Source of the DNA: Candidatus Poriferisocius sp.
GTDB lineage: Bacteria; Actinomycetota; Acidimicrobiia; Acidimicrobiales; Bin134
DNA: 64,000 nt
Assembly: GCF_965202595.1 (NCBI RefSeq)
Contig: NZ_OZ241836.1
Location: 215,095 to 279,094, forward strand
Reading direction: 5' to 3'
Under the pieces are notes generated by a model. It saw only the letters and a program-made list of their open reading frames with translations, did no database searches and had not been told where the DNA came from. Below are positions 14,516-63,524 of this stretch, piece after piece (position 1 is the first letter of the stretch; the number at the start of each line of letters is the position of its first letter). Both the position numbers and the translations under genes were made by a program.

Positions 14516-14648
14516 ATGACGCGGCCTGGTGGTGTTGATCTGTGGGGTTGTCGATGACGCGGCCTGGTGGTGTTGATGTGTGGGGTTGTCGATGACGCGG
14601 CCTGGTGGTGTTGATGTGTGGGGTTGTCGATGACGCGGCCTGGTGGTG
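14516..14648 (+). repeat. 38-bp tandem repeat (3 full units plus a partial one) encoding three ATGA-chained 13-codon mini-ORFs that lead into the next gene
   Basis: Mini-ORFs at 14516-14557, 14554-14595 and 14592-14633 (MTRPGGVD[L/V]WGCR*). Each stop overlaps the next ATG. The last ATG, at 14630, starts the downstream gene (MTRPGGDTGG...). Confidence 0.9.
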
Positions 14649-16501: not shown

Positions 16502-17389
16502 TTGATACCGCCTCGGGGCACTGGCGCAGCCTTGCGCTACGACACCGTCTCGTTCTTGTCCGATTACGGGCTGGGTGATGAATTCGTCGGGGTGGTGAAG
16601 TCGGTCATCCGGTCTCTGGCTCCCGAGGTGGTGGTGGTGGACATCACCCATGACATTGCTCCTCACGATGTCAGGGCCGGGGGCCTGGCCCTGGCTCGCA
16701 GCGCCCAGTACCTGGTACCCGGGGTGGTGCTGGCCGTGGTCGATCCCGGAGTGGGGGGCAAGCGGCGGGCCGTGGCGGTGGAAGTGGGAGGCGGAACCTC
16801 GGTGCTGGTCGGCCCCGACAACGGCCTGCTGGCCCCGGCGGTGGCCATGGTCGGGGGAGCGACCCGAGTGGTGGAGCTGACCGCCGAGAAATACCACCTT
16901 CGCTCTCCCGGCCCTACATTCGCGGGCCGCGACGTGTTCGCTCCGGTGGCCGCCCACCTGTGTTCGGGGGTCGGGCTCGAAGACGTGGGCACGCCGATCC
17001 CTATGCACTCCCTGACTCCGGGAGTCGTGCCGGTGAGCCGTACCGGCGGCGACCGGATCGATGCCGAGGTGCTTTGGATCGATCGATTCGGGAACTTGCA
17101 GCTCAACCTCGACCCCTCCGACATCGACCCTATGGGTGATGTGCTGAGGATCACCGCGGGCGGTGTGGGTCGCAACGCCCGCCGGGTCAACTGCTTCAGC
17201 GATGTGAGCACTGGTGATCTGGGGATACTGGTAGACTCCTACGGGTTGGCGGCCGTTGCGGTCAACCGAGGTTCGGCAGCGATGGAGTTGAACTGCAAGG
17301 AGGGTGACTCCATCATCGTCGAATCGGGGGAGTCCGCTTTGGCCACCCCGGTGCAACTTCAACCCAGACCCCCGGAGGTGCCGGCATGA
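16502..17389 (+). CDS. SAM hydroxide adenosyltransferase / SAM hydrolase family (DUF62)
   Basis: VSFLSDYGLGDEFVGVVKSVI, PGVVLAVVDPGVG, LVGPDNGLL and IDRFGNL match the fluorinase/chlorinase-like family. Confidence 0.75.
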   Translation: MIPPRGTGAALRYDTVSFLSDYGLGDEFVGVVKSVIRSLAPEVVVVDITHDIAPHDVRAGGLALARSAQYLVPGVVLAVVDPGVGGKRRAVAVEVGGGTSVLVGPDNGLLAPAVAMVGGATRVVELTAEKYHLRSPGPTFAGRDVFAPVAAHLCSGVGLEDVGTPIPMHSLTPGVVPVSRTGGDRIDAEVLWIDRFGNLQLNLDPSDIDPMGDVLRITAGGVGRNARRVNCFSDVSTGDLGILVDSYGLAAVAVNRGSAAMELNCKEGDSIIVESGESALATPVQLQPRPPEVPA

Positions 17390-17484
17390 GACCGGGAACC
17401 ACCATCGCTATCGCCGTGCCATGAGACCGGGAACCACCATCGTCATCGCCGTGCCATGAGACCGGGAACCACCATCGTCATCGC
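17386..17484 (+). repeat. 35-bp tandem repeat (2 units plus a partial one) encoding two ATGA-chained 12-codon mini-ORFs
   Basis: Mini-ORFs 17386-17424 (MRPGTTIAIAVP*) and 17421-17459 (MRPGTTIVIAVP*). The first ATG overlaps the upstream gene's stop (ATGA at 17386-17389). The last stop overlaps ATG 17456. Confidence 0.9.
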
Positions 17485-19459: not shown

Positions 19460-20434
19460 ATGCTGCGCGCCGCCACCCGAGGCAGCGCCTTGGCCCGCTG
19501 GCAAGCAGCCCACGTAGCCGATCTGCTGGGCGATGCCATCGACGTTCAACTGCTTGTTGTGACCACAACCGGCGACCGGCGAGCCGGCGAGCCCATATCG
19601 TCCATCGGCGGCAAGGGGGTGTTCGTCAAGGAGGTGCAGGCCGCGGTGCTGGACGGGCGGGCCGACCTGGCCGTCCACTCGGCCAAGGACCTGCCCGCCA
19701 CCACCCCCGATGGTCTGGTGGTGGCTGCGGTGCCCCCCCGGGCCGATCCTCGGGACGCGCTGGTGGGCAGCCGGTTGGACGACCTTCCCCCCAAAGGGTT
19801 GGTGGCCACCGGCTCGGCCCGCCGCCGGGTTCAGCTCCGCCGGCTCCGCCCCGATCTGCGGTTCGCCGAGTTGCGGGGCAACATTGACACCCGGCTGGCC
19901 AAGGTGCCCGACTACCACGCAGTGATCATGGCCAAAGCCGCCCTGGACCGGCTGGGCGAGCATCCGAGCGTTGTGGCGGCGCTGGGTCGGCGGGGCGAGC
20001 AACCGAGCGTTGTGGCCGCCCTGGAGCGGCTGGGCGAGCAACCGAACGTTGTGGATGTGTTGGGTCGGCGGCGCGAGCAGCCGGCCATCGTGGATGTGTT
20101 GGACTGCGAGGTTATGGTTCCTCAGGTGGGTCAAGGGGCCCTGGCGGTGGAGTGCCGGGAGGGCGATGATCGGGTCCGCTCCCTTCTGGCCGCCATCGAG
20201 GATCCAATGGCCCGGCGAGCGGTGGACGCCGAGCGGGCCTTTCTGTCCACCCTGGGCGGTGATTGCACCTTGCCCGCGGGAGCCCACGCCCGGATACTCG
20301 ACAACCGGGTGGTGATGCGGGCCGTGCTGGCCGGCGGTGTGGACGGCCGCTGCCACACCATGGTTGACGAGGGCAGCGACGGTGAATCCCTGGGCCAAGA
20401 CTTGGCCCGCCGGTTGCTTGCCGCGGCCCGATGA
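19460..20434 (+). CDS. hemC: Hydroxymethylbilane synthase (porphobilinogen deaminase) with a 39-bp x4 in-frame insertion
   Basis: LRAATRGSALARWQA, GKGVFVKE, RGNIDTRL and PQVGQGALAVECR motifs. ATG 19460 is preferred over the maximal ORF start at 19412. Confidence 0.9.
   Translation: MLRAATRGSALARWQAAHVADLLGDAIDVQLLVVTTTGDRRAGEPISSIGGKGVFVKEVQAAVLDGRADLAVHSAKDLPATTPDGLVVAAVPPRADPRDALVGSRLDDLPPKGLVATGSARRRVQLRRLRPDLRFAELRGNIDTRLAKVPDYHAVIMAKAALDRLGEHPSVVAALGRRGEQPSVVAALERLGEQPNVVDVLGRRREQPAIVDVLDCEVMVPQVGQGALAVECREGDDRVRSLLAAIEDPMARRAVDAERAFLSTLGGDCTLPAGAHARILDNRVVMRAVLAGGVDGRCHTMVDEGSDGESLGQDLARRLLAAAR
19955..20110 (+). repeat. In-frame 39-bp (13-aa) tandem repeat x4 inside hemC
   Basis: ggcgagca[t/a]ccgagcgttgtgg at 19955, 19994 and 20033, with a degenerate copy at 20072. 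Protein: GEHPSVVAALGRR GEQPSVVAALERL GEQPNVVDVLGRR REQPAIVDVLD. Confidence 0.9.
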
Positions 20435-20662
20435 CCGTTTATCCACGATGGCAGGGTTGATGGGCATGGCGTTGAACACTCGCCGGTTGCTTGCTGCGGC
20501 CCGATGACCGTTTATCCACGATGGCAGGGTTGATGGGCATGGCGTTGAACACTCGCCGGTTGCTTGCTGCGGCCCGATGACCGTTTATCCACGATGGCAG
20601 GGTTGATGGGCATGGCGTTGAACACCCGCCGGTTGCTTGCTGCGGCCCGATGACCGTTTACC
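20408..20662 (+). repeat. 73-bp tandem repeat (3 units plus a partial one) of the hemC-stop/cobA-start junction, encoding six chained mini-ORFs
   Basis: cgccggttgcttgc at 20408, 20481, 20554 and 20627. Mini-ORFs: 20431-20460, 20460-20507, 20504-20533, 20533-20580, 20577-20606, 20606-20653. They alternate between 9 aa (MTVYPRWQG) and 15 aa (MGMALNTRRLLAAAR), linked by ATGA and TGATG overlaps. Confidence 0.9.
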
Positions 20663-32146: not shown

Positions 32147-32680
32147 ATGACCGGCCAGTACCTGCCGATCCTCGCCCTCGGGGTGCTGGCCGTGTTGTTT
32201 GCCGCCCTCAGCTTCGGTGCATCCCGCCTGCTGGCTCCCCGGCGGCAGACCCGGGCCAAGCTGGCTCCCTACGAGTGCGGGGTCGCCGAGAGCGGTGATG
32301 TCCCGGAGCGGTTCGGGGTGCGGTTCTTTCTCATCGCCATGATCTTCATAGTCTTCGACATCGAGATCATCTTCTTGTACCCCTGGGCGGTGTCCTACCG
32401 GGGGTTGGGTCTGTTCGGCCTGGTGGCCATGGGGGTGTTCGCCCTGGTGGTGTTCGAGTCCTTCGTCTATCTCATAGGCAACGGGGCTCTGGACTGGGGG
32501 CCGGCGCGGTCCTCGTGGCGGCGCGACCCCCGGGTGTTGGCCCACCGCACCAGCGACACCACCATCCGCCGGGTTGGTTTGGACGGTCGCGGTTCTGCGG
32601 GTGGGGTTGGTTTGGATGGTCGCGGTTCTGCGGGTGGGGTTGGTTTGGATGGTCGCGGTTCTGCGGGGGAGGCGGCGTGA
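32147..32680 (+). CDS. nuoA: NADH-quinone oxidoreductase subunit A with a repeat-expanded C-terminal tail
   Basis: PYECG, and [21 protein letters not shown]. The tail carries [11 protein letters not shown] x3. Confidence 0.9.
32571..32669 (+). repeat. In-frame 33-bp tandem repeat x3 at the nuoA 3' end
   Basis: gggttggtttgga[c/t]ggtcgcggttctgcgggtg at 32571, 32604 and 32637. Confidence 0.9.
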
Positions 32681-33728: not shown

Positions 33729-35104
33729 GCGCCAGCGCTCCCGGTGCTGTGGTTGATGCCGGTGCTGCCGGTGCCGGTGCTGTGATTGATGCCGGTGCTG
33801 CCGCCCCTGGCACCGTGGTTGATGCCGGTGCTGCCGGTGCCGCGGACACGGCCGAAGCCGTTTGCCGGCGGGAGGGTAGCGCGGTGCTCAGGATCGGTGA
33901 GGACGACGGTGAGCGTTTGGAGGCCGAGGCCGGCACCAGCGCCACCAGCATGGTCATGAACATGGGGCCCCAGCATCCCAGTACCCACGGTGTGCTGCGG
34001 CTCATGCTGGAGATGGATGGGGAGACCGTGATGCGGTCCAAGCCGGTCATCGGCTACCTCCACACCGGTATGGAGAAGACCGCCGAAACCCTCACCTACC
34101 TCCAGGGCCCCACCAACGTCACCCGCATGGATTACGCCTCGCCGCTGTTCAGCGAGCTGGCCTTCTCGATGGCCACCGAGGCGTTGCTGGGCCTGGAACT
34201 GCCCCCCCGAGCCGTATGGATCAGGATGCTCATGTGCGAGTTGAACCGCATCAGCTCGCACCTGCTGTTCCAGGCCACCAACGGCATGGACATCGGGGCG
34301 GTGTCGATGATGCTGTACGGCTGGCGGGAGCGGGAGGAGGTTCTCCGGCTGCTGGAGAAGATCACCGGGCTGCGGATGAACCACAACTACATCCGGCCCG
34401 GCGGGGTGGCTGCTGACCTTCCCGATGGCTGGCGGGACGGCGTGCTTTCCCTGATCGACACCCTGCCCGCCCGGCTCGACGAGTTCGACACCCTGCTCAC
34501 CGGCCAGCCCATCTACCGGCAAAGGTTGCAGGGCGTGGGGGTGATCAACCCCGCCGAGTGCCTGGCCCTGGGGGTGACCGGGCCCATCCTGCGCTCCACC
34601 GGCTACGCCTGGGACCTGCGGCGCGACATGCCCTATCTGGCCTATGACCAGGTGGATTTCGACGTGGTGGTGGGCACCTACGGGGACTGCTTCGACCGCT
34701 ACGCCATCCGGTTGAACGAGATAAGGGAATCGATTCGCATAGTGGCTCAGATCCTCGACCGGATGCCCGCCGGTGACTACCGGGTACAGGACAAGAAGGT
34801 CACCCCGCCGCCCCGGGCCCGTATTGATGAGTCGATGGAGGCCCTCATCCACCACTTCAAGATCTTCACCGAGGGGTTCAAGGTGCCGGCCGGTGAGGTG
34901 TATGCCGCCGTGGAATCCCCCCGGGGCGAGCTGGGCTGTTACATGGTGTCCGATGGCTCGGCGGTGCCCTACCGCATGCACATCCGCGGCCCCAGCTTCG
35001 TGAACCTGCAAACCCTGCCTCACCTGATGCGGGGGGGCCTGGTGGCCGACGCGGTGGCCATCATCTCCTCGGTGGATCCCATTATGGGAGAGGTGGACCG
35101 GTAG
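33725..35104 (+). CDS. nuoD: NADH-quinone oxidoreductase subunit D with a repeat-expanded N-terminus
   Basis: MNMGPQHPSTHGVLRL, and ESPRGELG near the C-terminus. Confidence 0.95.
   Translation: MSASAPGAVVDAGAAGAGAVIDAGAAAPGTVVDAGAAGAADTAEAVCRREGSAVLRIGEDDGERLEAEAGTSATSMVMNMGPQHPSTHGVLRLMLEMDGETVMRSKPVIGYLHTGMEKTAETLTYLQGPTNVTRMDYASPLFSELAFSMATEALLGLELPPRAVWIRMLMCELNRISSHLLFQATNGMDIGAVSMMLYGWREREEVLRLLEKITGLRMNHNYIRPGGVAADLPDGWRDGVLSLIDTLPARLDEFDTLLTGQPIYRQRLQGVGVINPAECLALGVTGPILRSTGYAWDLRRDMPYLAYDQVDFDVVVGTYGDCFDRYAIRLNEIRESIRIVAQILDRMPAGDYRVQDKKVTPPPRARIDESMEALIHHFKIFTEGFKVPAGEVYAAVESPRGELGCYMVSDGSAVPYRMHIRGPSFVNLQTLPHLMRGGLVADAVAIISSVDPIMGEVDR
33743..33841 (+). repeat. In-frame 33-bp tandem repeat x3 at the nuoD 5' end
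   Basis: ggtgctgtggttgatgccggtgctgccggtgcc at 33743, with copies at 33776 and 33809. Protein: GAVVDAGAAGA GAVIDAGAAAP GTVVDAGAAGA. Confidence 0.85.
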
Positions 35105-35745: not shown

Positions 35746-37166
35746 TGGTGGTGGATGGGGGTGTGCGGATTGTTACGTCCCGCTTCGATGTGTCCGACGG
35801 GCACACAATGGCTGGCTATCAGCGTACTGGGGGGTATGAAGGGTTGCGGCGGGCGCTGGGGATGACCCCGGAGCAGGTCCACGACGAGGTTCGTGCCGCC
35901 AGCCTGCTGGGCCGGGGCGGGGCCGGGTTCCCCGCCGGGGTCAAGTGGGGGTTCTGCCCGCCCGGGGTCTGGCCCCGCTACCTGGTGGTGAACGGTGACG
36001 AGTCGGAACCCGGCACCTACAAGGATCGCCTCCTCATGGAGCGTGACCCCCACCAGCTCATCGAGGGTTGCCTGATCGCCTGCTACGCCCTCGGCCTCTC
36101 CCAGTGCTTCCTGTACGTGCGGGGCGAGATGGCCCATGCCCAGGAGCGGCTGGCCGCCGCTCTCAACGAGGCCTACGAGGCCGGGTACGTGGGCCGCAAC
36201 GTGCTCGGTGCCGGCGACTTCTCGGTGGACATCACCCTGCACTGGGGGGCCGGGGCCTACATCGTGGGGGAGGAGACCGCCCTGATCGAGAGCCTGGAGG
36301 GCAAGCGGGGTATGCCCCGATTGAAACCGCCCTACTTCCCGGCTTCCATAGGTCTCTACGGCAAACCCACCATCGTCAACAACGTGGAAACCCTGTCCAA
36401 CCTGCCGTGGATCTTGGCCAAAGGGGGAGCGGCCTTCGCCGCGATGGGGGCGGACGGCTCCACCGGTACCCGGGTGTTCGCAGTGTCGGGCCACGTGGTT
36501 TCCCCCGGCGTGTTCGAGGTTCCCTTCGGCACCACCACATTTCGCGACATCATCTTCGATCCCCGGTACGCCGGTGGCCTCCACCCCGGCCGTACCCTCA
36601 AGACGTTCATCCCCGGCGGGGCGTCGGCTCCCTGGTTCTTCGAGGAGCACCTTGACTTGCCCCTGGAGAAGACCACGGTGGACAAGGCCGGCTCGATGCT
36701 CGGCTCGGGAGCCATCGTGGTCATGGACGACACCACCGACGTGGTGAGGGCCTGCCACAACGTGGTGCGCTTCTTCGCCCGGGAATCCTGCGGCAAGTGC
36801 ACCCCGTGCCGGGAAGGCACCTCGTGGATGGAGAAGATCCTCAGCCGCATCCTGGACGGTCAGGGCCGACCCGATGACCTGGAACTACTGATCGACGTGG
36901 GCGACAACATCAGCCCGGGCGGGCACTGGCCCCCCCGCCAGACCACCATATGCCCGCTGGGCCCATCGGCGGTCTCACCAATCGCCTCCGCGCTGGGCCG
37001 GTTCCGCGACGAGTTCGAGGCCTACCTGCCCGCTGATGCTGTTGTGCCCGCTGACGCTGTTGTGCCGGCTGACGCTGTGATGCCCGCTGACGCTGTTGTG
37101 CCGGCTGATGCTGTGATGCCGGCCACTTCGGTGACCATAACTGCGAGTTCGGGAGCGGCACCGTGA
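35742..37166 (+). CDS. nuoF: NADH-quinone oxidoreductase subunit F with a repeat-expanded C-terminus
   Basis: GRGGAGFPAG, YLVVNGDESEPG and ESCGKCTPCREG motifs. Confidence 0.95.
   Translation: MMVVDGGVRIVTSRFDVSDGHTMAGYQRTGGYEGLRRALGMTPEQVHDEVRAASLLGRGGAGFPAGVKWGFCPPGVWPRYLVVNGDESEPGTYKDRLLMERDPHQLIEGCLIACYALGLSQCFLYVRGEMAHAQERLAAALNEAYEAGYVGRNVLGAGDFSVDITLHWGAGAYIVGEETALIESLEGKRGMPRLKPPYFPASIGLYGKPTIVNNVETLSNLPWILAKGGAAFAAMGADGSTGTRVFAVSGHVVSPGVFEVPFGTTTFRDIIFDPRYAGGLHPGRTLKTFIPGGASAPWFFEEHLDLPLEKTTVDKAGSMLGSGAIVVMDDTTDVVRACHNVVRFFARESCGKCTPCREGTSWMEKILSRILDGQGRPDDLELLIDVGDNISPGGHWPPRQTTICPLGPSAVSPIASALGRFRDEFEAYLPADAVVPADAVVPADAVMPADAVVPADAVMPATSVTITASSGAAP
37029..37118 (+). repeat. In-frame 18-bp tandem repeat x5 at the nuoF 3' end
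   Basis: cc[c/g]gctga[t/c]gctgt[t/g][g/a]tg at 37029, 37047, 37065, 37083 and 37101. Protein: PADAV[V/M] x5. Confidence 0.9.
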
Positions 37167-39790
37167 ACCGGCCGGAAACCGTGGTCAACATCACCGTCAA
37201 CAACCGGTCGGTGCAAGCCACCCCCGGAGAGTGGGTGATTGCCGCTGCCGAACGGGCCGGGGTGTACATCCCCCACTTTTGCTACCACCCCCGCATGAAC
37301 TCGGTGGGCATGTGCCGCATGTGCATCGTGGACATCGACACCGGGCGCGGCCCCGCCCTGCAACCCTCCTGCATGGTGCCGGTCAGCGAGGGAATGGTGG
37401 TGGACACCACCTCCGAGCAGACCCGCAAGGCTCAGGAGGGGGTGCTGGAGTTCCTGCTGTTGAACCACCCGCTGGACTGCCCGGTGTGCGACAAGGGCGG
37501 CGAGTGCCCCCTCCAGGACCAAACCATGTCCCACGGCCCCGGCGAGAGCCGCTTGGTGGAGGAGAAGCGCCATTTCGAGAAGCCCATCCCGGTGAACGAT
37601 CTGGTTTATCTGGACCGGGAGCGCTGCATCCTCTGCGATCGCTGCACCCGGTTTGCCGATGAGGTGGCTGGGGACCCGCTCATCACGTTCCAGGATCGGG
37701 GGGATCGGACTCAGGTCAACACCTTCCCCAATCTGCCCTTCTCCTCGTACTTCAGCGGCAACACCGTGCAGATCTGCCCGGTGGGGGCCCTCACCGCTCG
37801 ACCCTACCGGTTCAAGGCCCGCCCCTGGGACCTCACCGAGGTGGAGTCCACCTTCCCCAACCCCATGGGTGATCGGGTGGTGGTGCAGGCCTCTCGCGAC
37901 CAGGTGCTGCGCTACCAGGGAGTGGACAGCGACGCGGTCAACTGGGGGTGGCTCACCGACAAGGATCGGTTCGCATTCGAAGCTCTTGATCGGGGGCCAC
38001 GGCTGACGGTGCCGCTGGTTCGGGGCTCCTCGATGAGTGGCTCCGACCCCGGCGGCCAGGAGCTGGTGGAGTCCTCCTGGCATCAAGCCCTCAACCGGGC
38101 CGCGGAGGCCATCCGGGCTGCGGTGGCCGACCGGGGTCCGGGGTCGGTGGCGATACTGGGTGGGGCCCGCTCGACCAACGAGGACCAGTACGCCTGGGCT
38201 CGCCTGGCCAAGGGGGTTATCGGCACCGACCATGTTGACGCTCAGCTCGACGACGGCCTGCCCGCCGATGTCGTGCTCGGCCTGCCTCGGGCCACCATCA
38301 ATCGGGCCTGCACCCCCGGCGGCACCGTGATCTTGATGGCACCCGATCCCAAGGAGGAACAAGGCACCCTCTACCTGCGGCTCCGCCACGCCGTGACCAA
38401 CGACGGCGTGCAGCTCATCGAGCTGACCCCCCGAGCCACCGGTTTGAGCCATCTCGCCGCCCACCGGCTGCACCACCGCCCCGGTGAGGTTGCCGCGGTG
38501 GCGGCGGCCCTGGTGGGCGGCGATATCGATGTCGGACCCGCCGGTGAGATCGGCGGGGTTCCCGGTCCGGTGCTGGCCGCTGCGGCGGCCGGGCTGGTGG
38601 CCCGAGCCGATCAACCCATAACCGTGATCCTGGGTCGCCCTTCGCTGGCCGAGTCGGCCGCCCCTACGGTGGAGGCCGCCGCCGAACTGTCCAAGCTGGC
38701 CCGGCTGCTCGCCGCGGGCGGGCGACCCGGCATGAGTTTCCTGCCCGTACTGCACCGGGGCAACGTGTTCGGCGCGCTCGACATGGGTCTGGCTCCCGGT
38801 CTGCTGCCGGGCCGGGTGTCCCGGGCCGATGGTGGCTCGGCGGTGGCCGAGTTTTGGGGTTCGTTACCGGCGGACCCGGGCGCTGGGGCCGGCATCGCCA
38901 CCGGCGCTGCCACCGGCGCTGGGGCTGGTGCTGTCACCGGCGCTGCCACCGGCGCTGCCACCGGCGCTGGGGCCGGCGGGATCCTGGAAGCGGCCGCAGG
39001 GGGACGAATCGAGGTGCTGATCCTTTTGGGGGCCGATCCTTTGGGCGACGTTCCCAACGCCAAGCTGGCCGAGACCGCTCTGGCCGGGGTGGGCACCATC
39101 ATTGCCTCCGACTTGTTCCTGAACCCCTCCGCGGCCCGGGCCGACATCGTTTTCCCGGTCACGGCGTTCGGTGAGCATCGGGGTACCCACACCAACCTGG
39201 AGGGTCGGATCACCCGGCAGCGCCAGATTGTCACCCCTCCGGGTACGGCCCGGACCAACTGGTCCATCGCCACCGATCTGGCTCGGTTGCTGGGCACCGA
39301 TTTCGGGTTTGCCGACCCCGAGGCGGTGTGGTCCGAGATCACCCGGGTGGCCCCGTCGCACCGGGACCTGACCCTGGAGGCCGTGGAAGCCGAAACCGAT
39401 GGCGTGGTGGTTGCCGGTAGCTCCATCGTGTTCACCCCGCCCGGCGAACCGGTGCCGGTACCCCCGGCCGATGCCTACGGCCTGCGGTTGGTGTCGTCGC
39501 GCCGCATGTACGACCGGGGCACGCTGCTTCAGCACTCCCCCTCCCTGGCCGGTTTGGCTCCCACGGCGGTGCTGGCCGTGAACCCCTCCGACTTTCAGGG
39601 TGTCGGGGTGGATCCCGGTACCGAGGTTCAGGTCGTCTCCCCGGTCGGTGAGATGACCGTGCCGCTGGTGGTCGACCCCGGTGTGCCCCGAGGGACCGCA
39701 GCTTTTGGCTACAACCACCCCGACCGCGATGTACGAGAACTCATCGACCCGGCCGCGGTGGTTACCGATGTGAGGATTCAGACCCGATGA
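37163..39790 (+). CDS. nuoG: NADH-quinone oxidoreductase subunit G
   Basis: N-terminal 2Fe-2S/4Fe-4S Cys clusters (CYHPRMNSVGMCRMC, HPLDCPVCDKGGECPLQD, CILCDRC) and a molybdopterin-like domain. A GA/T-rich low-complexity insertion lies around 38870-38990. Confidence 0.95.
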   Translation: MNRPETVVNITVNNRSVQATPGEWVIAAAERAGVYIPHFCYHPRMNSVGMCRMCIVDIDTGRGPALQPSCMVPVSEGMVVDTTSEQTRKAQEGVLEFLLLNHPLDCPVCDKGGECPLQDQTMSHGPGESRLVEEKRHFEKPIPVNDLVYLDRERCILCDRCTRFADEVAGDPLITFQDRGDRTQVNTFPNLPFSSYFSGNTVQICPVGALTARPYRFKARPWDLTEVESTFPNPMGDRVVVQASRDQVLRYQGVDSDAVNWGWLTDKDRFAFEALDRGPRLTVPLVRGSSMSGSDPGGQELVESSWHQALNRAAEAIRAAVADRGPGSVAILGGARSTNEDQYAWARLAKGVIGTDHVDAQLDDGLPADVVLGLPRATINRACTPGGTVILMAPDPKEEQGTLYLRLRHAVTNDGVQLIELTPRATGLSHLAAHRLHHRPGEVAAVAAALVGGDIDVGPAGEIGGVPGPVLAAAAAGLVARADQPITVILGRPSLAESAAPTVEAAAELSKLARLLAAGGRPGMSFLPVLHRGNVFGALDMGLAPGLLPGRVSRADGGSAVAEFWGSLPADPGAGAGIATGAATGAGAGAVTGAATGAATGAGAGGILEAAAGGRIEVLILLGADPLGDVPNAKLAETALAGVGTIIASDLFLNPSAARADIVFPVTAFGEHRGTHTNLEGRITRQRQIVTPPGTARTNWSIATDLARLLGTDFGFADPEAVWSEITRVAPSHRDLTLEAVEAETDGVVVAGSSIVFTPPGEPVPVPPADAYGLRLVSSRRMYDRGTLLQHSPSLAGLAPTAVLAVNPSDFQGVGVDPGTEVQVVSPVGEMTVPLVVDPGVPRGTAAFGYNHPDRDVRELIDPAAVVTDVRIQTR

Positions 39791-39840
39791 CGGCTGACCC
39801 GGCTGCGGTGGTTACCGATGTGAGGATCCGGACCCGATGA
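39746..39840 (+). repeat. 50-bp duplication of the nuoG/nuoH junction with a 17-codon bridging mini-ORF
   Basis: gacccggc.gcggtggttaccgatgtgaggat.c.gacccgatga at 39746 and 39796. Mini-ORF 39787-39840 (MTADPAAVVTDVRIRTR*). ATGA overlaps at both ends. Confidence 0.9.
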
Positions 39841-41063
39841 ACGTCGCCCCGGCGCTTTTGGGTCCGACCGTGTTCGGCCTCGACCCGCTCTACATCGGGG
39901 GGGTGGGCCTGGCCGAGGTTCTCATCACCCTGCTCAAGGTGGGGGTGGCTTTTGCTCTTCTGCTGATGGCGGTCATGCTGATGATCTGGTTCGAACGCAA
40001 GTTGATCGGCGACATGCAGAACCGTATCGGGCCTGCGCTGGCCGGGCCGTTCGGCATCTTCCAGACCCTGGCCGACGGGATCAAGCTGTTCTTCAAGGAG
40101 GACCTGATCCCCGACCGCTCCGACCGGTTGGTGTTCAAGCTGGCCCCCTACCTGTCGCTGGTGCCTGCCTTTTTGGTGTTCGCCGTGATCCCCGTGGGCG
40201 GCGATTTCAGCGGTGGCAACGGGCGGGTCAGCCTGTTCGGTCACGAGACCTTCCTCCAGGTGTCCGACCCGCCGGTGGGCATCCTGCTGGTGCTGGCCAT
40301 GTCGTCGGTGGCCGTTTACGGGGTGATGCTGGCCGGGTGGTCGTCGGGCTCCAAGTATCCCCTGCTGGCGTCGGTGCGGGCCTCGGCCCAGATGGTTTCC
40401 TACGAGGCCGCACTGGGTTTGTCGCTGGCCGCGGTGCTGCTGAAATCGGGCAGCCTGTCCACCCACCTGATCGTTTCCGAGCAGTCGGTGTGGAACTGGA
40501 ACCTGTGGGTTACATGGGTGGTGCCCATGGTCGTCTTCTTGATCGCTGCCACCGCCGAACTGAACCGGCCCCCCTTCGACCTGGTGGAGGCCGAGCAGGA
40601 GCTGGTCGGCGGCTTCCACACCGAGTACAGCTCCATCCGGTTCGCCCTGTTCTACCTGGCCGAGTTCATGAACACCATCACGATGTCGGCCATCGTGGTG
40701 ACCCTGTTCCTGGGCGGGCCCAACGGTCCCGACTTCACCTCGGTGGGCTGGCTGTCGGGGTTGCTGTGGTTCTTGGGCAAGCTGCTGATCCTGCTGTTCA
40801 CCTTTGTGTGGTTGCGGGCCACCCTGCCCCGCTTCCGCTACGACCAGCTCATGGACCTGGGTTGGAAATTGCTCATCCCCCTGTCGCTGGGGTGGCTGCT
40901 GGTGCTGGCCTCCTACGACGTGGCCGGGGATCGGGGCTGGAACCGCTTCGCCACCGTGCTGGCGGTGATGGCGGTGATGGCCGCTCTGGCCGGGTTGTTG
41001 AGCCTGGCCCTGCGAAATGCCCGCCGCCACCGGGAGTTGGATCCCCAAGGTGGTTTTGCCTGA
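39837..41063 (+). CDS. nuoH: NADH-quinone oxidoreductase subunit H
   Basis: WFERKLIGDMQNRIGP and EAEQELVGGFHTEYS motifs. Confidence 0.95.
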   Translation: MNVAPALLGPTVFGLDPLYIGGVGLAEVLITLLKVGVAFALLLMAVMLMIWFERKLIGDMQNRIGPALAGPFGIFQTLADGIKLFFKEDLIPDRSDRLVFKLAPYLSLVPAFLVFAVIPVGGDFSGGNGRVSLFGHETFLQVSDPPVGILLVLAMSSVAVYGVMLAGWSSGSKYPLLASVRASAQMVSYEAALGLSLAAVLLKSGSLSTHLIVSEQSVWNWNLWVTWVVPMVVFLIAATAELNRPPFDLVEAEQELVGGFHTEYSSIRFALFYLAEFMNTITMSAIVVTLFLGGPNGPDFTSVGWLSGLLWFLGKLLILLFTFVWLRATLPRFRYDQLMDLGWKLLIPLSLGWLLVLASYDVAGDRGWNRFATVLAVMAVMAALAGLLSLALRNARRHRELDPQGGFA

Positions 41064-41130
41064 TGGGATACCTTGAGTTCACCCGATGGTGGCTGGATCC
41101 CCAAGGTGGTTTTGCCTGATGGGATACCTT
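41039..41130 (+). repeat. 56-bp duplication of the nuoH/nuoI junction with an 18-codon bridging mini-ORF
   Basis: ggatccccaaggtggttttgcctgatgggatacctt at 41039 and 41095. Mini-ORF 41063-41119 (MGYLEFTRWWLDPQGGFA*). TGATG overlaps at both ends. Confidence 0.9.
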
Positions 41131-41775
41131 CAGGGCTTTGCCGTCACCCTTCGCAAGTTGTTCAAGGGCACCGAGACCGGTCGGGTGGTCACCAGCCAGT
41201 ACCCCGACGAGAAGCGTCCCAAACCCGAGCGCTTCCACGGCCGCCACGTGCTGAACCGCTACGAGGACGGCATGGAGAAGTGCATCGGGTGCGAGCTGTG
41301 CGCCGGGGTCTGCCCGGCCCGGTGCATTTATGTTCGGGGGGCCGACAACCAGCCCGATGATCCGGTTTCGCCCGGCGAGCGATACGGCTATGTCTACGAG
41401 ATCAACTACCTGCGGTGCATCCACTGCGACCTGTGCGTGGAGGCCTGCCCCACCGAGGCCATAACCGAGTCGAAACTGTTCGAGTTCTCGTTCACCGACC
41501 GGGCCGATGCCATCTACACCAAGGACGAGCTGGTGGTGGATGACGATGGCCGCCCCCAGCAGCTTCCCTGGGAACACTGGAATCCCGGTGACGATCAGCA
41601 CACCTCGGCCTGGGTCCGGGCCACATCCCCCTCGGGGCGGGCCGACTACGAGGGTCGGGTGGCCTGGTCGGGCGAGCTGGGCTACGGCATCCGCGCCCCC
41701 GAGCGGGGTCAGTCGGCCGGCGACGAGTCCCCCGCCGATTATGACCAGGAAGATCTTGGCGGGGGTCACCACTGA
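41119..41775 (+). CDS. nuoI: NADH-quinone oxidoreductase subunit I
   Basis: CIGCELCAGVCP and CIHCDLCVEACP motifs. The start is at the second junction copy (MGYLQGFAVTLRK). Confidence 0.95.
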   Translation: MGYLQGFAVTLRKLFKGTETGRVVTSQYPDEKRPKPERFHGRHVLNRYEDGMEKCIGCELCAGVCPARCIYVRGADNQPDDPVSPGERYGYVYEINYLRCIHCDLCVEACPTEAITESKLFEFSFTDRADAIYTKDELVVDDDGRPQQLPWEHWNPGDDQHTSAWVRATSPSGRADYEGRVAWSGELGYGIRAPERGQSAGDESPADYDQEDLGGGHH

Positions 41776-41818
41776 TGGAGACAGCGGTTCGCAAAGCCCA
41801 TGGCGGGGGTCACCACTG

Positions 41819-41826
<8 letters not shown>
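41758..41826 (+). repeat. 44-bp duplication of the nuoI/nuoJ junction with a 14-codon bridging mini-ORF
   Basis: ggcgggggtcaccactgatggagac at 41758 and 41802. Mini-ORF 41775-41819 (METAVRKAHGGGHH*). Confidence 0.9.
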
Positions 41827-42356
<530 letters not shown>

Positions 42357-42370
<14 letters not shown>

Positions 42371-42461
42371 TGGTCACCGCATTCTGGTATGTCCGTTGCC
42401 GGCCACCGCGGGGGCTGCGACCGGCCCCCGGTGAAGACTGATGGTCACCGCATCCTGGTAT
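42357..42461 (+). repeat. 71-bp duplication of the nuoJ/nuoK junction with a 23-codon bridging mini-ORF
   Basis: ccggtgaagactgatggtcaccgcat.ctggtat at 42357 and 42428. Mini-ORF 42370-42441 (MVTAFWYVRCRPPRGLRPAPGED*). Confidence 0.9.
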
Positions 42462-42743
42462 CTGGTGCTGGCTGGCGCGCTGTTCACCATCGGGGCGGTG
42501 GGCCTGCTGGTGCGGCGGAACCCGCTGATCATGTTCATGTGCGTGGAGCTGATGCTCAACGCGGTCAACCTCACCTTCATCACCTTCGGGCGGGAGCTGA
42601 ATGACATCGGGGGGCAGGTGTCGGTGTTCTTCGTGCTGGTGGTGGCCGCGGCCGAGGTGGTGGTGGGTCTGGCCATCGTGGTGGCCATCAAGCGCCACCA
42701 ACCCCGGGCCACCGCCGACGACCTTGCGGCCCTGAAGGGTTAG
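42441..42743 (+). CDS. nuoK: NADH-quinone oxidoreductase subunit K
   Basis: 100 aa: LVLAGALFTIGAVGLLVRRNPLIMFMCVELMLNAVNL. Confidence 0.95.
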   Translation: MVTASWYLVLAGALFTIGAVGLLVRRNPLIMFMCVELMLNAVNLTFITFGRELNDIGGQVSVFFVLVVAAAEVVVGLAIVVAIKRHQPRATADDLAALKG

Positions 42744-42843
42744 TGGGTACATGAGCATGCTCGTGGATGCTGAAGGGTTAGTGGGTACATGAGCACCCTC
42801 GTGGATGCTGAAGGGTTAGTGGGTACATGAGCACGCTCGTGGA
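42732..42843 (+). repeat. 38-bp tandem repeat x3 of the nuoK/nuoL junction with two chained 13-codon mini-ORFs
   Basis: ctgaagggttagtgggtacatgagca..ctcgtggat at 42732, 42770 and 42808. Mini-ORFs 42751-42792 (MSMLVDAEGLVGT*) and 42789-42830 (MSTLVDAEGLVGT*), ATGA-chained to the nuoL ATG at 42827. Confidence 0.9.
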
Positions 42844-44722
42844 TCTGGTGTGGCTGATCCCCGCCTTCCCGCTGGCCGGGGTTCTGATCCTCGTGGTTTC
42901 GGGGCGCAGGCTGGGCGAACCCCGGGCCGGCTGGCTGGCCACCGCCATGATGGGCGGATCGTTCGTGACCACGCTGCTGGTGTTCATCGGGCTCCTGGGC
43001 CACGACGGTGAGGAGCGTCAAAAGGTGCTCACCCTGTTCGAGTGGGTACCCGCGGGGCGGCTGGCGGTGGACATCGGCTTTCTGGCCGACCCGCTGGCCA
43101 TCACCATGGCCTTGTTCGTGACCGGGGTCGGAGCTCTCATCCACCTTTACTCCATCGGCTACATGCACGGCGACGAGGGGTTCTCCCGGTTCTTCGTGTA
43201 CCTCAACCTGTTCGCCTTCTCCATGCTCATGCTGGTGCTGGGCGACAACCTCCTGCTCACCTTCCTGGGCTGGGAGGGGGTGGGGGCCTGCTCCTACCTG
43301 CTCATCTCGTTCTGGTTCACCGACGAAACCAACGCCACCGCGGGCAAGAAGGCGTTCGTCACCAACCGGGTGGGCGACTGGGGCTTCTTGGTGGCCATGT
43401 TCCTGGCGTTCTTGACCTTCGGGTCGCTCCAGTACGGCGAGATCTTCTACGACCTGGAGTCCAACGGGGTGGCCGCTGGCACCGCGTCGGCCATCGTGGT
43501 GCTGCTGCTGGTGGGCGCGGCCGGCAAATCAGCCCAGTTCCCGCTGCACATCTGGCTGCCCGATGCCATGGCCGGCCCCACCCCGGTGTCGGCGCTCATT
43601 CACGCCGCCACCATGGTCACCGCCGGGGTTTACCTGCTGATCCGCATGAACCCGATCATTGCCGAGGCCCACGGGTGGGTGCCCGACCTGATCATGTGGT
43701 TGGGTCTGGGGACCGCGCTGATGGCCGCCACCATCGCGGTGGCCCAGAACGACATCAAGAAGGTGCTGGCCTACTCCACGGTCAGCCAGCTCGGGTTCAT
43801 GTTCGTGGCGGTGGGGTCGGGGGCCTACGTGGCCGCCATCTTCCACATGGTAACCCACGCCTTTTTCAAGGCCCTCCTGTTCCTGGGGGCCGGGTCGGTG
43901 ATCCACGCCATGCACGGCGATCAGGATCTTCGCCGCTACGGCGGTCTGGCCCGATTTCTGCCCGTTACCTCGATGACCTTCGTGGCCGGCTGGCTGGCCA
44001 TTGCCGGCGTTCCCCCGTTCTCCGGTTTCTGGTCCAAGGACGAGATCCTGGTTTACGCCTATGGCGAGAACAAGCTGCTGTGGCTGCTGCTGCTGGTGAC
44101 CGCGGTGCTCACCGCCTTCTACATGACCCGGCTGGTGCTCATGACGTTCTTCGGCCCCCGCCGCTGGGCGGGCGAAGCAGCCGATCCCCACGAGTCGCCG
44201 TGGACGATGACCGCTCCCCTGGTGGTTCTGGCCGCCCTGGCCGTGGTGGCCGGGGTGGTGAACCTGCCGTTTGCCTCCAGCACCCACTTCTTGGGGAACT
44301 GGCTGGATCCGGCCTTTTTCGGCAATGCCTCTCACCTGAGCCTCGGCGGGGGCACCAAATGGGTGCTGGCCGCCGTTGCCATCGTGGGCAGCCTTCTGGG
44401 AGTCTCGGCCGGGGCCGCGGTGTACGCCCGGCGCCGGGTGGATCCGGCTCGCCTCGAGCACCCCTTCCTGGCCCGGGCCTGGCGCATCGATGAGCTGGTC
44501 ACCGCCTTCATGGGTGGTCCCGGCCGCCGGGCGTTCGAGCGCACCACCCGGTTTGATGAGCAGGTGGTGGACGGCGCGGTCAACGCCACCGGCGCTTTGA
44601 TCCGCCGGGCCGGAACCAAACTGCGGGTGTCGCAAACCGGCCTGGTGCGCAGTTACGCCCTGGGTATCGCCGCCGGGGCAGTGGCACTTTTGGCCTGGTT
44701 CCTGTCGCGGGCGGGGTTGTGA
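42827..44722 (+). CDS. nuoL: NADH-quinone oxidoreductase subunit L
   Basis: 631 aa, with antiporter-like motifs (WEGVGACSYLLISFW, KSAQFPLHIWLPDAMAGPTPVSALIHAATMVTAG). Confidence 0.95.
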   Translation: MSTLVDLVWLIPAFPLAGVLILVVSGRRLGEPRAGWLATAMMGGSFVTTLLVFIGLLGHDGEERQKVLTLFEWVPAGRLAVDIGFLADPLAITMALFVTGVGALIHLYSIGYMHGDEGFSRFFVYLNLFAFSMLMLVLGDNLLLTFLGWEGVGACSYLLISFWFTDETNATAGKKAFVTNRVGDWGFLVAMFLAFLTFGSLQYGEIFYDLESNGVAAGTASAIVVLLLVGAAGKSAQFPLHIWLPDAMAGPTPVSALIHAATMVTAGVYLLIRMNPIIAEAHGWVPDLIMWLGLGTALMAATIAVAQNDIKKVLAYSTVSQLGFMFVAVGSGAYVAAIFHMVTHAFFKALLFLGAGSVIHAMHGDQDLRRYGGLARFLPVTSMTFVAGWLAIAGVPPFSGFWSKDEILVYAYGENKLLWLLLLVTAVLTAFYMTRLVLMTFFGPRRWAGEAADPHESPWTMTAPLVVLAALAVVAGVVNLPFASSTHFLGNWLDPAFFGNASHLSLGGGTKWVLAAVAIVGSLLGVSAGAAVYARRRVDPARLEHPFLARAWRIDELVTAFMGGPGRRAFERTTRFDEQVVDGAVNATGALIRRAGTKLRVSQTGLVRSYALGIAAGAVALLAWFLSRAGL

Positions 44723-44795
44723 TGTTCCGTAGCCGATCATCTGGCCCATTCCGGCAACTTTTGGCCTGGTTCCTGTCGCGGGCGGGGTTGTGATG
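44686..44795 (+). repeat. 71-bp duplication of the nuoL/nuoM junction with a 23-codon bridging mini-ORF
   Basis: acttttggcctggttcctgtcgcgggcggggttgtgatg at 44686 and 44757. Mini-ORF 44722-44793 (MFRSRSSGPFRQLLAWFLSRAGL*). Confidence 0.9.
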
Positions 44796-46382
44796 GACGG
44801 ATCCAGCATTTTGGCGGCCATAATCTTTTTGCCCCTGGTGGGTGCGGTTGCCCTCGCGCTGGTGGCCCCGTCCCGCTCGACGGTGCTCAAACCGGTGGCA
44901 GTGGCCACCTCGTCGGCCACCGGGGCCCTCACCCTCTGGCTGATGGCCGCCTTCGACAGCGGTGACAGCGGCTTCCAGTTCACCCAGGTGGCCGGGTGGA
45001 TCGATTCGGCCGGCATCTCCTGGCATGTGGGGGTGGACGGCATCTCGCTGTTCCTGGTCGTGCTCACCGGGGTGCTGTTCCCCATTGCCATCGTGGCCTG
45101 TGACCCACCCCATAACGCCAAGGCCTACTACGTCTGGCTGCTGGTGCTGGAGACCGGCTGCCTCGGGGTGTTCCTGGCGCTGGATCTGGTGCTGTTCTTC
45201 CTGTTCTTCGAGATCGTGCTGGTGCCGATGTACTTCCTCATCGGCTCCTGGGGTCACGACAACCGCCGCTACGCCGCCACCAAGTTCTTCCTCTTCACCA
45301 TGCTGGGCTCGGCCCTGATGCTGGTGGGAATGCTCACCCTGGCTCTGCTCACCGCCCACCACACCGGCAACGCCGTCACGTTCAACGTCGTAGAGCTGGC
45401 CCAAAGCGCCGGTGAGCTGCCCACCATCACCGCCCGCTGGGTGTTCCTGTCGTTCGTTTTGGCCTTTGCGGTGAAGGTTCCCATGTTCCCGGTGCATACC
45501 TGGTTGCCCGATGCCCACACCGAGGCCCCCACCGCCGGCTCGGTGATCCTGGCCGGGGTCATGCTCAAGCTGGGTACCTACGGTCTGGTCCGTTTCGGCC
45601 TGTACCTGTTTCCCGAGGCCACCCGCTACTTCGCTCCGCTCATGTTCACCCTGGGGGTGATCGGCATCCTCTACGGCGCGGTGGTGGCCACCATGCAGCG
45701 TGACCTGAAGCGCCTGGTGGCCTACTCATCGGTGGCCCACCTCGGTTTCATCGTGCTGGGCATATTCGCCCTCAACACCGAGGGACTGGAGGGCGGCCTG
45801 CTCCAGATGGTCAACCACGGGCTGTCCACCGGGGCGTTGTTCCTGCTGGTGGGGTTCATCTACGAGCGTCGCCACACCCGCCGGATCTCCGAGCTGGTGG
45901 GTCTGCAAAAGGCCGCCCCGGTTCTGGCCGCGGTGTTCACCGTGGTGATGCTGTCGTCGGTGGGGCTCCCCGGGCTCAACGGCTTCGTCGGCGAGTTCCT
46001 CATCCTGACCGGGGCGTTCGTGGCTCACCGCTGGTGGGCGGTGGTGGCCACCGCCGGGGTGATTCTGGCCGCGCTCTACCTGTTGTGGGCCTACCAGAGG
46101 GTGTTTCACGGCACCCCCGACGGCAAGAACGCGTCCACGCCCGACCTCACATGGCAGGAGAAGCTGGTGATGCTGCCGCTGGTGGGCCTCATCGTGTTCT
46201 TGGGGGTGTACCCCAAACCGGTGATAGAGAGGATGGAACCAGCGGTGAACGCCCTGATCGAGCACATGGAACGGGTCGAGGGGTTCGAGTCGCCCACGGT
46301 GGGTGATCGACCCGGCGGCAGCTTCGAGGAGCTGCGCGACCTCCGGGTGGATCACGATGACACCGGGGAGGGTCACCACTGA
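44790..46382 (+). CDS. nuoM: NADH-quinone oxidoreductase subunit M
   Basis: FAVKVPMFPVHTWLPDAHTEAPTAGSVILAGVMLKLGTYG. Start is GTG 44790 or ATG 44793. Confidence 0.95.
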   Translation: MMDGSSILAAIIFLPLVGAVALALVAPSRSTVLKPVAVATSSATGALTLWLMAAFDSGDSGFQFTQVAGWIDSAGISWHVGVDGISLFLVVLTGVLFPIAIVACDPPHNAKAYYVWLLVLETGCLGVFLALDLVLFFLFFEIVLVPMYFLIGSWGHDNRRYAATKFFLFTMLGSALMLVGMLTLALLTAHHTGNAVTFNVVELAQSAGELPTITARWVFLSFVLAFAVKVPMFPVHTWLPDAHTEAPTAGSVILAGVMLKLGTYGLVRFGLYLFPEATRYFAPLMFTLGVIGILYGAVVATMQRDLKRLVAYSSVAHLGFIVLGIFALNTEGLEGGLLQMVNHGLSTGALFLLVGFIYERRHTRRISELVGLQKAAPVLAAVFTVVMLSSVGLPGLNGFVGEFLILTGAFVAHRWWAVVATAGVILAALYLLWAYQRVFHGTPDGKNASTPDLTWQEKLVMLPLVGLIVFLGVYPKPVIERMEPAVNALIEHMERVEGFESPTVGDRPGGSFEELRDLRVDHDDTGEGHH

Positions 46383-60483: not shown

Positions 60484-60647
60484 CTGCTGTCCAGCAGTAC
60501 CCGGTAGTGCTCCGCTGGGGAGGAGGGCCGTATTCTCACCGTCACGCGTGCCATTCGTTGAGCAGTACCCGGTAGTGCTCCGCTGGGGATGCGGTTTGGG
60601 TTCTCACCGTCACGCGTGCCATTCGTTGAGCAGTACCCGGTAGTGCT
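60477..60647 (-). repeat. 68-bp tandem repeat (2 units plus a partial one) of the GT4-stop / methyltransferase-start junction, with two chained mini-ORFs
   Basis: The tca (stop) recurs at 60610 and 60542. Minus-strand mini-ORFs: 60613-60542 (VTVRTQTASPAEHYRVLLNEWHA*) and 60545-60477 (VTVRIRPSSPAEHYRVLLDSRC*). They are GTGA-chained, and the last overlaps the methyltransferase GTG by 7 nt. Confidence 0.85.
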
Positions 60648-61869
60648 CAACGGTCTTTTCCGCAGTGTGGTGCCAACTCCAGCGGCTCCTCACCCGTTCC
60701 CGCCCGGCTTGGCCTATCCGAGCGGCCATGGCCGGATTGTCCAGAATCCGAACGAGCGCCCCGGCCAATGCCTCGCTGTCTGCGGGGGGCACCAGCAGGC
60801 AGGTCTCGCCGCTGGTGCCGGCCACCTCGGGCAGCGCCCCGCCGGTGGTGGCCACCAGCGGTGTGGCGCTGGACATGGTTTCGATGGCCGGCAGCGAGAA
60901 CCCCTCGTACAGCGAGGGCACCACTGCCACTGAGCTGGTGGCGTACAGCTCCACAATGCGGTCATCGGGCACCCCCGACACGAACTCCACCACCTCGCCC
61001 AGTCCCAGGCTGTTGATGGTGGAGGAGGATGCACCCCCCTCGCGGGGTTTTCCGATCACGATCAGCCGCACATCCCGCTCGGTGCGCAACTTGGCCACCG
61101 CCTCCAGCAGGTAGCGCAGGCCCTTCATGGGCACATCCGCGCTGGCGGTGGTGATGATCTGCCCCGGCCGGCGGTCCACGCCGGGAAGCGGGCGGAACAG
61201 CTCGGTATCCACCCCCACCGGTACCACATGCATCCGGCCATGGGGTACCCGCTGGTCCCGGGCTATGTCGTCGAGGGACGACTCCGACACGGTGATGATG
61301 CGCCGCAAGCGGCGGGCCACCCGGGCCTGCATCCGGATGAAGGAGTACCAGCGTCGCTTGCCGAAACGATCCATCATCCCCCGGGCGTGCTCGAGCTCCA
61401 GTTGGCGGTCCACGGTGATGGGATGGTGGATGGTGGCCAGTACCGGTAGCCCGTCCCGCTCCATGCCCAAAAGCCCGTAGCCCAATGACTGGTTGTCGTG
61501 CACGATATCGAATTCCCCGGCTCGGGAGCGCAGTGCCTGCCAGGCCCGGAGCGAGAAGGCCAGCGGTTCGGAGAAGGCTCCGGTCATGAACGAGCCCACC
61601 TCGGCGGCATCGGCCCACGATTTGATCTCCCAGAATCCGGGTAACCGGCCCGGGTAGGCATCGTTGAAGATATCCAGGCTGGGAAGCCGGTGAAGCGGTA
61701 CCCGAGGGTCCAGAACCGGGTAGGGCTGCCCGCTCAGCACCTCCACGTGGTGCCCCAGATCGGTCAGCGCCCGACTCAGGTGATGGACGTACACGCCCTG
61801 GCCCCCGCAATGGGGTTTGCCCCGGTACGAAAGCAGGGCAATCCTGAGGGATCGATCCTCCGGGGCCAT
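60610..61869 (-). CDS. GT4-family glycosyltransferase
   Basis: IALLSYRGKPHCGGQGVYVHHLSRAL, and PSLYEGFSLPAIETMSSATPLV (EX7E region). Confidence 0.85.
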   Translation of the reverse strand: MAPEDRSLRIALLSYRGKPHCGGQGVYVHHLSRALTDLGHHVEVLSGQPYPVLDPRVPLHRLPSLDIFNDAYPGRLPGFWEIKSWADAAEVGSFMTGAFSEPLAFSLRAWQALRSRAGEFDIVHDNQSLGYGLLGMERDGLPVLATIHHPITVDRQLELEHARGMMDRFGKRRWYSFIRMQARVARRLRRIITVSESSLDDIARDQRVPHGRMHVVPVGVDTELFRPLPGVDRRPGQIITTASADVPMKGLRYLLEAVAKLRTERDVRLIVIGKPREGGASSSTINSLGLGEVVEFVSGVPDDRIVELYATSSVAVVPSLYEGFSLPAIETMSSATPLVATTGGALPEVAGTSGETCLLVPPADSEALAGALVRILDNPAMAARIGQAGRERVRSRWSWHHTAEKTVEHYRVLLNEWHA

Positions 61870-63456: not shown

Positions 63457-63524
63457 TGGTATCTCATTGCCACGGGCATCTCATCGCCACTGGCATCTCA
63501 TCGCCGCGGGTATCTCATCGCCAA
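63453..63524 (-). repeat. 17-bp tandem repeat x4 encoding four ATGA-chained 4-6-codon mini-ORFs, ending on the lnt GTG
   Basis: tcat at 63464, 63481, 63498 and 63515; tcac at 63453. Minus-strand ORFs, verified base by base: MRYPRR* (63518-63498), MRCQWR* (63501-63481), MRCPWQ* (63484-63464), MRYQ* (63467-63453). Confidence 0.9.

Follow-up and report, generated by a model that had tools for sequence, protein, structure and literature searches.

Whether overlaps between adjacent genes, such as ATGA, serve translational coupling or merely compactness is still argued, and the nuoG/nuoH junction in the stretch analysed here, 64,000 nt of a Candidatus Poriferisocius sp. genome (hereafter the window), raises the question of what becomes of such an overlap once a spacer has been copied into it. 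The ends of the two genes lie in tandem copies of a 50-nt unit, and a 17-codon open reading frame (ORF), hereafter the mini-ORF, runs from the nuoG stop to the nuoH start. The account that we consider probable as a whole is that the junction was duplicated by slippage within a lineage-specific burst of short duplications, that a filter spared those duplications preserving a relay of stops and starts, and that ribosomes would be handed from nuoG to the mini-ORF and on to nuoH, the encoded peptide being junk.

Anatomy and origin of the nuoG/nuoH junction

The features of the six nuo junctions given here lie on the plus strand of the window. nuoG (37163–39790; 875 aa; NCBIfam NuoG NF005895/TIGR01973 and sequence) has the C-terminus DPAAVVTDVRIQTR and the stop TGA at 39788–39790, with a 3' end that reads GAC CCG GCC GCG GTG GTT ACC GAT GTG AGG ATT CAG ACC CGA TGA. 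nuoH (39837–41063; 408 aa; NCBIfam NuoH) begins MNVAPALLGPT. Repeat detection resolved the junction into two tandem copies, 39746–39795 and 39796–39845, identical at 43 of 50 positions (86%). Tandem Repeats Finder (TRF) reported a period of 50 with 1.9 copies, 93% matches and a score of 169, and a second row spanning 39744–39853 with 2.2 copies. Copy 1 consists of the final 41 nt of nuoG, followed by the ATGA and by ACGGCT-type codons that represent the ancestral nuoH start (MTA...), as judged from congener NuoH starts; the real nuoH start, with its translation-initiation region, lies in copy 2. The mini-ORF (39787–39840; MTADPAAVVTDVRIRTR followed by the stop) begins with an ATG at 39787–39789 that overlaps the nuoG TGA and ends with a TGA at 39838–39840 that overlaps the nuoH ATG at 39837–39839. 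A sequence-only reading of the window had proposed a 17-codon bridging ORF on a 50-nt unit, repeating the NuoG C-terminus and flanked by ATGA overlaps at both ends; sequence, repeat detection and TRF bear this out, with the overlaps at 39787–39790 and 39837–39840, and the mini-ORF reads the copied nuoG tail.

The ancestral junction had a 4-nt ATGA overlap, which the sister species still has, and a 50-nt segment was tandemly duplicated between two 10-nt microhomologies identical at nine of ten positions, leaving a slipped-strand footprint. The left microhomology, TCGACCCGGC (39744–39753; sequence and the 2.2-copy TRF row), and the right one, TCGCCCCGGC (39844–39853; sequence and TRF), which forms a partial third copy, would be spaced exactly 50 nt apart in a single-copy ancestor, with the middle occurrence of the bounding repeat, CTGACCCGGC, now at 39794–39803. 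The copies are thus arranged head-to-tail and the short direct repeat that bounds them is present once more after the last copy. RecA-independent slippage generates head-to-tail copies of this kind, bounded by short direct repeats, which may then expand or contract further. When compared by BLAST to the whole genome, the unit matched only its two local copies (E = 1.7e-12 for the second), the remaining matches being of 14–18 nt and at chance level.

Both proteins remain intact because copy 1 provides the end of nuoG and copy 2 the start of nuoH. A period of 2 mod 3 places the orphan ATG of copy 1 in the native frame of the copied nuoG tail, and that frame closes at the TGA overlapping the real nuoH ATG. 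The copied tail shows only three differences, two synonymous and one Q-to-R, so the event is not very recent, yet is younger than several of the neighbouring ones. Copy 1 retains ATG ACG GCT (MTA), as found at the start of NuoH in most congeners (MTAALGP, MTAVLGP), and since this ancestral start survives both in the mini-ORF and in the congeners, it is the real nuoH start that was altered after duplication. The present NuoH N-terminus, MNVAPALL (39837–39850), departs from the ancestral MTA... by four substitutions in six bases.

Given this arrangement, ribosomes terminating on nuoG would re-initiate on the mini-ORF, translate its 17 codons, terminate 51 nt later on the nuoH start and re-initiate there, and termination–reinitiation coupling would in this way outlast a 46-nt expansion that would otherwise abolish it. 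Hand-over through the mini-ORF, including translation of the mini-ORF itself, is what we infer from the arrangement of the sequence, and the resulting peptide is most likely junk. A Shine–Dalgarno-like (SD-like) GAGG lies at 39772–39775, 11 nt 5' of the mini-ORF ATG, and another at 39822–39825 precedes the nuoH ATG; the 21-nt upstream contexts of the two starts are nearly alike, with two differences. The 3' end of the 16S rRNA reads ...CACCTCCTTTCT, and with its CCTCC tail and the upstream GAGG the mini-ORF can also be initiated de novo. The predicted fold of the junction was unremarkable (z-score -0.86), and an Rfam scan of 39000–45500 returned only two sub-threshold chance matches.

Six nuo junctions in this genome and its congeners

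The identities of nuoG, H, I, J, K, L, M and N were confirmed with NCBIfam. The G/H junction had been read as the first of six consecutive duplicated nuo junctions, and repeat detection recovered all six, from G/H to L/M, with units of 50 nt at G/H, 56 nt at H/I, 44 nt at I/J, 71 nt at J/K and 71 nt at L/M (two copies each) and 38 nt at K/L (three copies), followed by a single TGATG at M/N. The period is 2 mod 3 at 6/6 of these junctions, and the combination of a -4 or -1 overlap with such a period means that a start in one copy reads to a stop that overlaps the start of the next copy. At nuoH/nuoI (41038–41133) the relay ORF spans 41063–41119 and encodes MGYLEFTRWWLDPQGGFA, with TGATG at both ends. 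The corresponding ORFs are 41775–41819 (METAVRKAHGGGHH) at nuoI/nuoJ (41750–41832), 42370–42441 (MVTAFWYVRCRPPRGLRPAPGED) at nuoJ/nuoK (42357–42461) and 44722–44793 (MFRSRSSGPFRQLLAWFLSRAGL) at nuoL/nuoM (44686–44795), where a 39-nt core is 100% identical between copies; all four of these peptides run to a stop codon. At nuoK/nuoL (42732–42845) the three copies form two ATGA-chained 13-codon ORFs, 42751–42792 and 42789–42830, that lead onto the nuoL ATG at 42827. This run is the longest chain of expanded junctions seen, which is not wildly improbable for the genome's longest chain of overlapping genes. TRF alone picks up two of the six duplications, and TRF-based counts thus understate the phenomenon.

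Comparison of the nuo operons of relatives, proposed along with the sequence-only reading as a check, took in 16 genomes of the genus and three more named records (19 congeners) at each of the six junctions, and returned a single junction in some species and independent relay inserts in others. The sister species (G008), which shares 85% nucleotide identity with this genome (G000) over nuo, has a single ATGA at G/H, as do five other congeners, and in eight species the junction is a lone ATGA or TGATG. Inserts of 38 nt are present at G/H in G016, G009, G018, G002 and G015, each encoding an ORF of 12–13 codons with its start placed on the nuoG stop and its end on the nuoH start. The peptides, each ending at a stop, are MTAGLSNQGVKTR, MTAGRPLQGVQV, MMVYLLLQGGQNR, MSAGVRGRWGES and MMAVVTNVRVQT, respectively, and have diverged beyond recognition. 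The I/J and J/K junctions are single in every species but the present one, except for a 17-nt I/J duplication in G005, and further inserts of 47–65 nt occur at H/I, K/L and L/M in various species.

On a NuoH+NuoL tree, in which this genome and G008 are sisters, the junction states are scattered, and at least 13 independent expansion events are therefore required. In all of these events every hop is -4, -1 or +0, even where the peptides have diverged completely or indels have accumulated (57 versus 56 nt at H/I; 53, 54 and 55 nt at K/L). Among the 19 congeners the relay is unbroken at nearly all clearly expanded nuo junctions, the only ambiguous cases being G/H of G005 and G013, the two most distant congeners, of lower guanine-plus-cytosine content. 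With 13/13 events in relay phase the probability is p = 1.2e-4 given a chance of 0.5 each, related species being not fully independent.

Both the presence and the copy number of junction units vary between species. At nuoL/nuoM of G008 (G008:C1:1539000-1545200, about 5702–5847 in query orientation) a 62-nt unit is repeated 2.4 times at 100% identity and gives two identical 21-codon relay ORFs (MMVDLLLPVRSSHVLCSRAGL, then a stop); this expansion looks very recent and like a good candidate for copy-number polymorphism. Contigs of the same species as the present genome were not found by an exact NuoK protein look-up or by a junction pattern scan of metagenome contigs, and a NuoJ-based metagenome scan found relatives at no more than 61% identity.

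The upstream nuo junctions, A/B to F/G, are still single overlaps. In-frame coding repeats were observed within four nuo genes, at the nuoA 3' end (33 nt, 2.9 copies, 32571–32667), the nuoD 5' end (33 nt, 3.1 copies, 33741–33842), the nuoF 3' end (18 nt, 4.9 copies, 37027–37120) and the interior of nuoG (12/36 nt, 38879–38978).

Duplication burst and relay statistics

The duplicated nuo junctions belong to a much larger set, as 788 tandem repeats with a period of at least 20 were found in the 3.1-Mb genome of this sponge-symbiont member of the Acidimicrobiia. Per 100-kb sample the present genome holds 21 tandem repeats and G008 holds 25, compared to 3–7 in three other congeners and 0–12 in the order's other families; the burst of local duplications of 20–100 nt is thus specific to the lineage of these two sister species. 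A correlate among repair genes was not found when the two rich genomes were compared to three poor ones (G001, G018 and G013): NucS and XseA are present in 5/5, RecJ (TIGR00644) and Ku (PF02735) were not detected in any of the five, and RecQ-family and DnaQ-family matches do not track repeat richness. Of 2442 gene stops, 320 have their 24-nt stop region repeated 12–200 nt downstream; of 3699 control positions inside genes, 22 do, with the repeat in frame in 22/22. Duplications pile up at gene boundaries, and the survivors lie overwhelmingly at harmless sites, because the proteins are not damaged when a copied segment includes a stop, a start or the two together.

Further tandem repeats at gene boundaries in the window lie at 14516–14648 (38 nt, 3.5 copies), 17385–17484 (35 nt, 2.9 copies), the 29495 region (74 nt, two copies), 60493–60648 (68 nt, 2.3 copies) and 63461–63523 (17 nt, 3.7 copies). 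Outside the window, at G000:C1:2234590-2238500, repeats with a period of 72–73 nt share the common sequence GCTTCAATGAAGGGGGGCTCTATTGAACCCCCGAAC and resemble a CRISPR array, with a 36-nt repeat and spacers.

Across the genome, about 83 of some 290 formerly overlapping junctions (about 29%) have been expanded. Relay paths were counted by strict -4/-1 walks, since starts from -10 to +23 proved too permissive to inform. Among the 83 copies of a -4/-1 junction with a real downstream gene, the unit length is 0 mod 3 in 13, 1 mod 3 in nine and 2 mod 3 in 61, whereas duplications of a 3' end only (n = 197) are without phase bias (69, 60 and 68, respectively; chi-square p = 1.6e-8 between the two classes). 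Every one of the 61 2-mod-3 junction units forms an exact one-hop relay. Of the nine 1-mod-3 units, seven relay in two hops by way of a second, internal stop/start overlap, and 11 of the 13 0-mod-3 units are N-terminal repeats, open and in frame, in which the first start continues to overlap the upstream stop. In total, an unbroken translation path is kept in 79/83 junction duplications (95%).

Duplications were simulated at the 208 single overlapping junctions of the genome, and at birth relays were formed by 99% of 2-mod-3 units, 9.9% of 1-mod-3 units and 1.2% of 0-mod-3 units, a further 76% of the last class being open extensions. The observed 7/9 relays among 1-mod-3 units exceed the simulated fraction (p = 2.8e-6), and 79/83 unbroken paths exceed the 62–71% predicted for newly arisen duplications (p ≤ 4e-8).

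A 73-nt unit (1 mod 3) is also found in the window at 20408–20660, in 3.5 copies between two co-directional genes. Its mini-ORFs alternate between MTVYPRWQG, with TGATG, and MGMALNTRRLLAAAR, with ATGA, each ending at a stop, and the relay is unbroken despite the out-of-phase period.

The strongest form of the argument from these counts would make junction duplications a general way for overlapping genes of operons to become separated under a selective filter, with relay mini-ORFs as obligate hand-over devices, termination–reinitiation coupling under strong selection in vivo, two-hop 1-mod-3 relays included, and copy-number changes that may also tune subunit ratios; this extension we put forward only tentatively, as doubtful in its full breadth.

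Several observations weigh against the relay account, and in one rival reading the duplications are real but are neutral debris with no coupling role. nuoH would then use its own ribosome-binding site and the mini-ORF would be irrelevant or untranslated, while the phase would arise from codon-periodic microhomology and from the purging of harmful alternatives, namely N-terminal extensions or reading through the real start in the wrong frame. Microhomologies of at least 6–8 nt across the 208 single overlapping junctions are already 43–50% 2 mod 3, such spacings being commoner because of codon periodicity, and part of the 2-mod-3 bias is therefore mutational. The 2-mod-3 fraction is flat with copy divergence, at 0.73 in all strata, so that phase shows no trend with age. 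The GAGG 5' of nuoH could allow de novo initiation that makes the relay dispensable, and the duplications of 3' ends only are plainly neutral in phase. In addition, the few substitutions in the G/H copy carry no statistical weight, and the gene calls came from a crude home-made caller. However, 61/83 is above even a conservative null of 0.5 (p = 2e-5), and old inserts in the congeners retain start-on-stop and stop-on-start despite indels and a complete turnover of the peptide. Selection is still needed because the internal second overlap is held by 7/9 of the 1-mod-3 units versus roughly 10% in simulation, which a phase bias cannot account for. The neutral reading is judged unlikely, although it survives better than any other rival. 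Under the relay account, the lack of a phase trend with divergence implies that the filter, if it is selection, acts early, before fixation, as is expected if broken junctions are clearly harmful.

That the units act as an adaptive tuning knob appears improbable. Copy number would be comparable to a variable number tandem repeat, each extra relay step lowering hand-over, and expansions would have been selected for the ratios of the Nuo subunits. Differences in copy number by junction and species (three copies at K/L here, 2.4 at L/M in G008) and the involvement of six consecutive junctions in the operon of a fixed-stoichiometry complex agree with this, but Complex I requires equal amounts of its subunits, leaving stepwise attenuation without an obvious benefit, and the expansion of about 29% of formerly overlapping junctions in many unrelated operons fits a mutational flood better. 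Assembly stutter or a collapsed haplotype mixture comes to mind since the genome is a metagenome-assembled genome, but is very improbable given that the copies differ at 7/50 positions, unlike stutter, in a biologically sensible pattern (MTA kept in copy 1), that the five other junctions bear different units, and that independent assemblies of at least eight congeners hold relay inserts at the same junctions. Equally remote is an inserted mobile element, related to mycobacterial interspersed repetitive units (MIRU) or miniature inverted-repeat transposable elements, or a conserved micropeptide gene: the layout, a small ORF overlapping both flanking genes within an operon, is MIRU-like (PMC3184786, PMC12548453), but the unit reproduces the adjoining nuoG tail and nuoH head and has no other genomic copy, the peptide is not conserved among congeners, and there is neither an RNA family match nor an unusual fold.

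Known systems and significance

The closest parallel in layout is provided by MIRU, which are 40–100-bp units, often in tandem, between operon genes (Supply et al. 1997, as summarised in PMC3184786 and PMC12548453). Their small ORFs overlap the flanking stop and start at -4 spacing, and the insert is tolerated via translational coupling; MIRU nevertheless form one dispersed family of about 40–50 related copies, thought to have transposed with 4-nt direct repeats (same sources). The G/H mini-ORF likewise sits between operon cistrons with its ends overlapping the flanking stop and start. Unlike MIRU, the unit is not part of a dispersed family. All-against-all BLAST showed repeat units to be private to their loci (744/788 singletons), and the six nuo units match only themselves in the genome; a mobile-element family was rejected on this unit clustering. 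The insert also copies the adjacent nuoG and nuoH rather than foreign sequence, and the empty site in G008 is a plain ATGA. The G/H unit works like a MIRU without being one.

Termination–reinitiation has been described at ATGA and TGATG overlaps between single pairs of real genes (Huber et al. 2019, PMC6728339; 2023, PMC10666635). With gaps of some 20 nt it almost disappears, and of the upstream gene the final 15 nt are enough (PMC10666635). The G/H junction has the same 4-nt same-strand overlaps, ATGA at both ends of the mini-ORF and ATGA or TGATG at the ancestral junction of congeners, as well as the required elements. As these amount to a start and at least the last 15 nt of the upstream ORF, translation of a bridge would restore coupling over a distance of 46 nt. 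What differs is that the overlap is repeated here, with an intermediate ORF that is a by-product without a protein role. The relay statistics, the relays of the congeners and this published distance dependence lend indirect support to a translational linkage of nuoG and nuoH through the bridge. Where short upstream ORFs hand terminating ribosomes to a coupled downstream gene, they are usually located in 5' leaders (reviewed in PMC12548453). Bringing a terminating ribosome onto the next start is likewise the only likely role of the mini-ORF, which, unlike leader ORFs, lies between two cistrons and is chained to both.

With respect to origin, the units resemble slipped-strand duplications and bacterial minisatellites, being head-to-tail copies bounded by microhomology. 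De novo tandem repeats are reported from a beta-lactamase gene (PMC4169377). The present repeats differ from ordinary minisatellites in their density (about 250 per Mb), which is specific to the lineage, and in that the survivors lie at gene boundaries with a relay-preserving geometry. No description of locus-specific junction duplications, nor of repeats in sponge Acidimicrobiia, was found in the literature searched.

Junction duplications affect annotation, as they add spurious small ORFs and mislead gene callers on start codons; the longest ORFs for nuoI and nuoJ begin at 41086 and 41507, and the homology-supported starts are 41119 and 41819. The repeats could also serve as strain markers for this uncultured sponge symbiont, and they show one route by which coding sequence gives rise to intergenic spacers and new short ORFs. 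For the debate on gene overlaps, spacers have been naturally inserted at about a hundred overlapping junctions, and those that persist almost always rebuild a stop on a start, even with unit lengths that would break it. Relay-preserving survivors of this kind are population-genetic evidence for coupling without experiment, and if the relay mini-ORFs are indeed hand-over devices, this genome and that of its sister species would hold roughly a hundred natural constructs for reporter tests.

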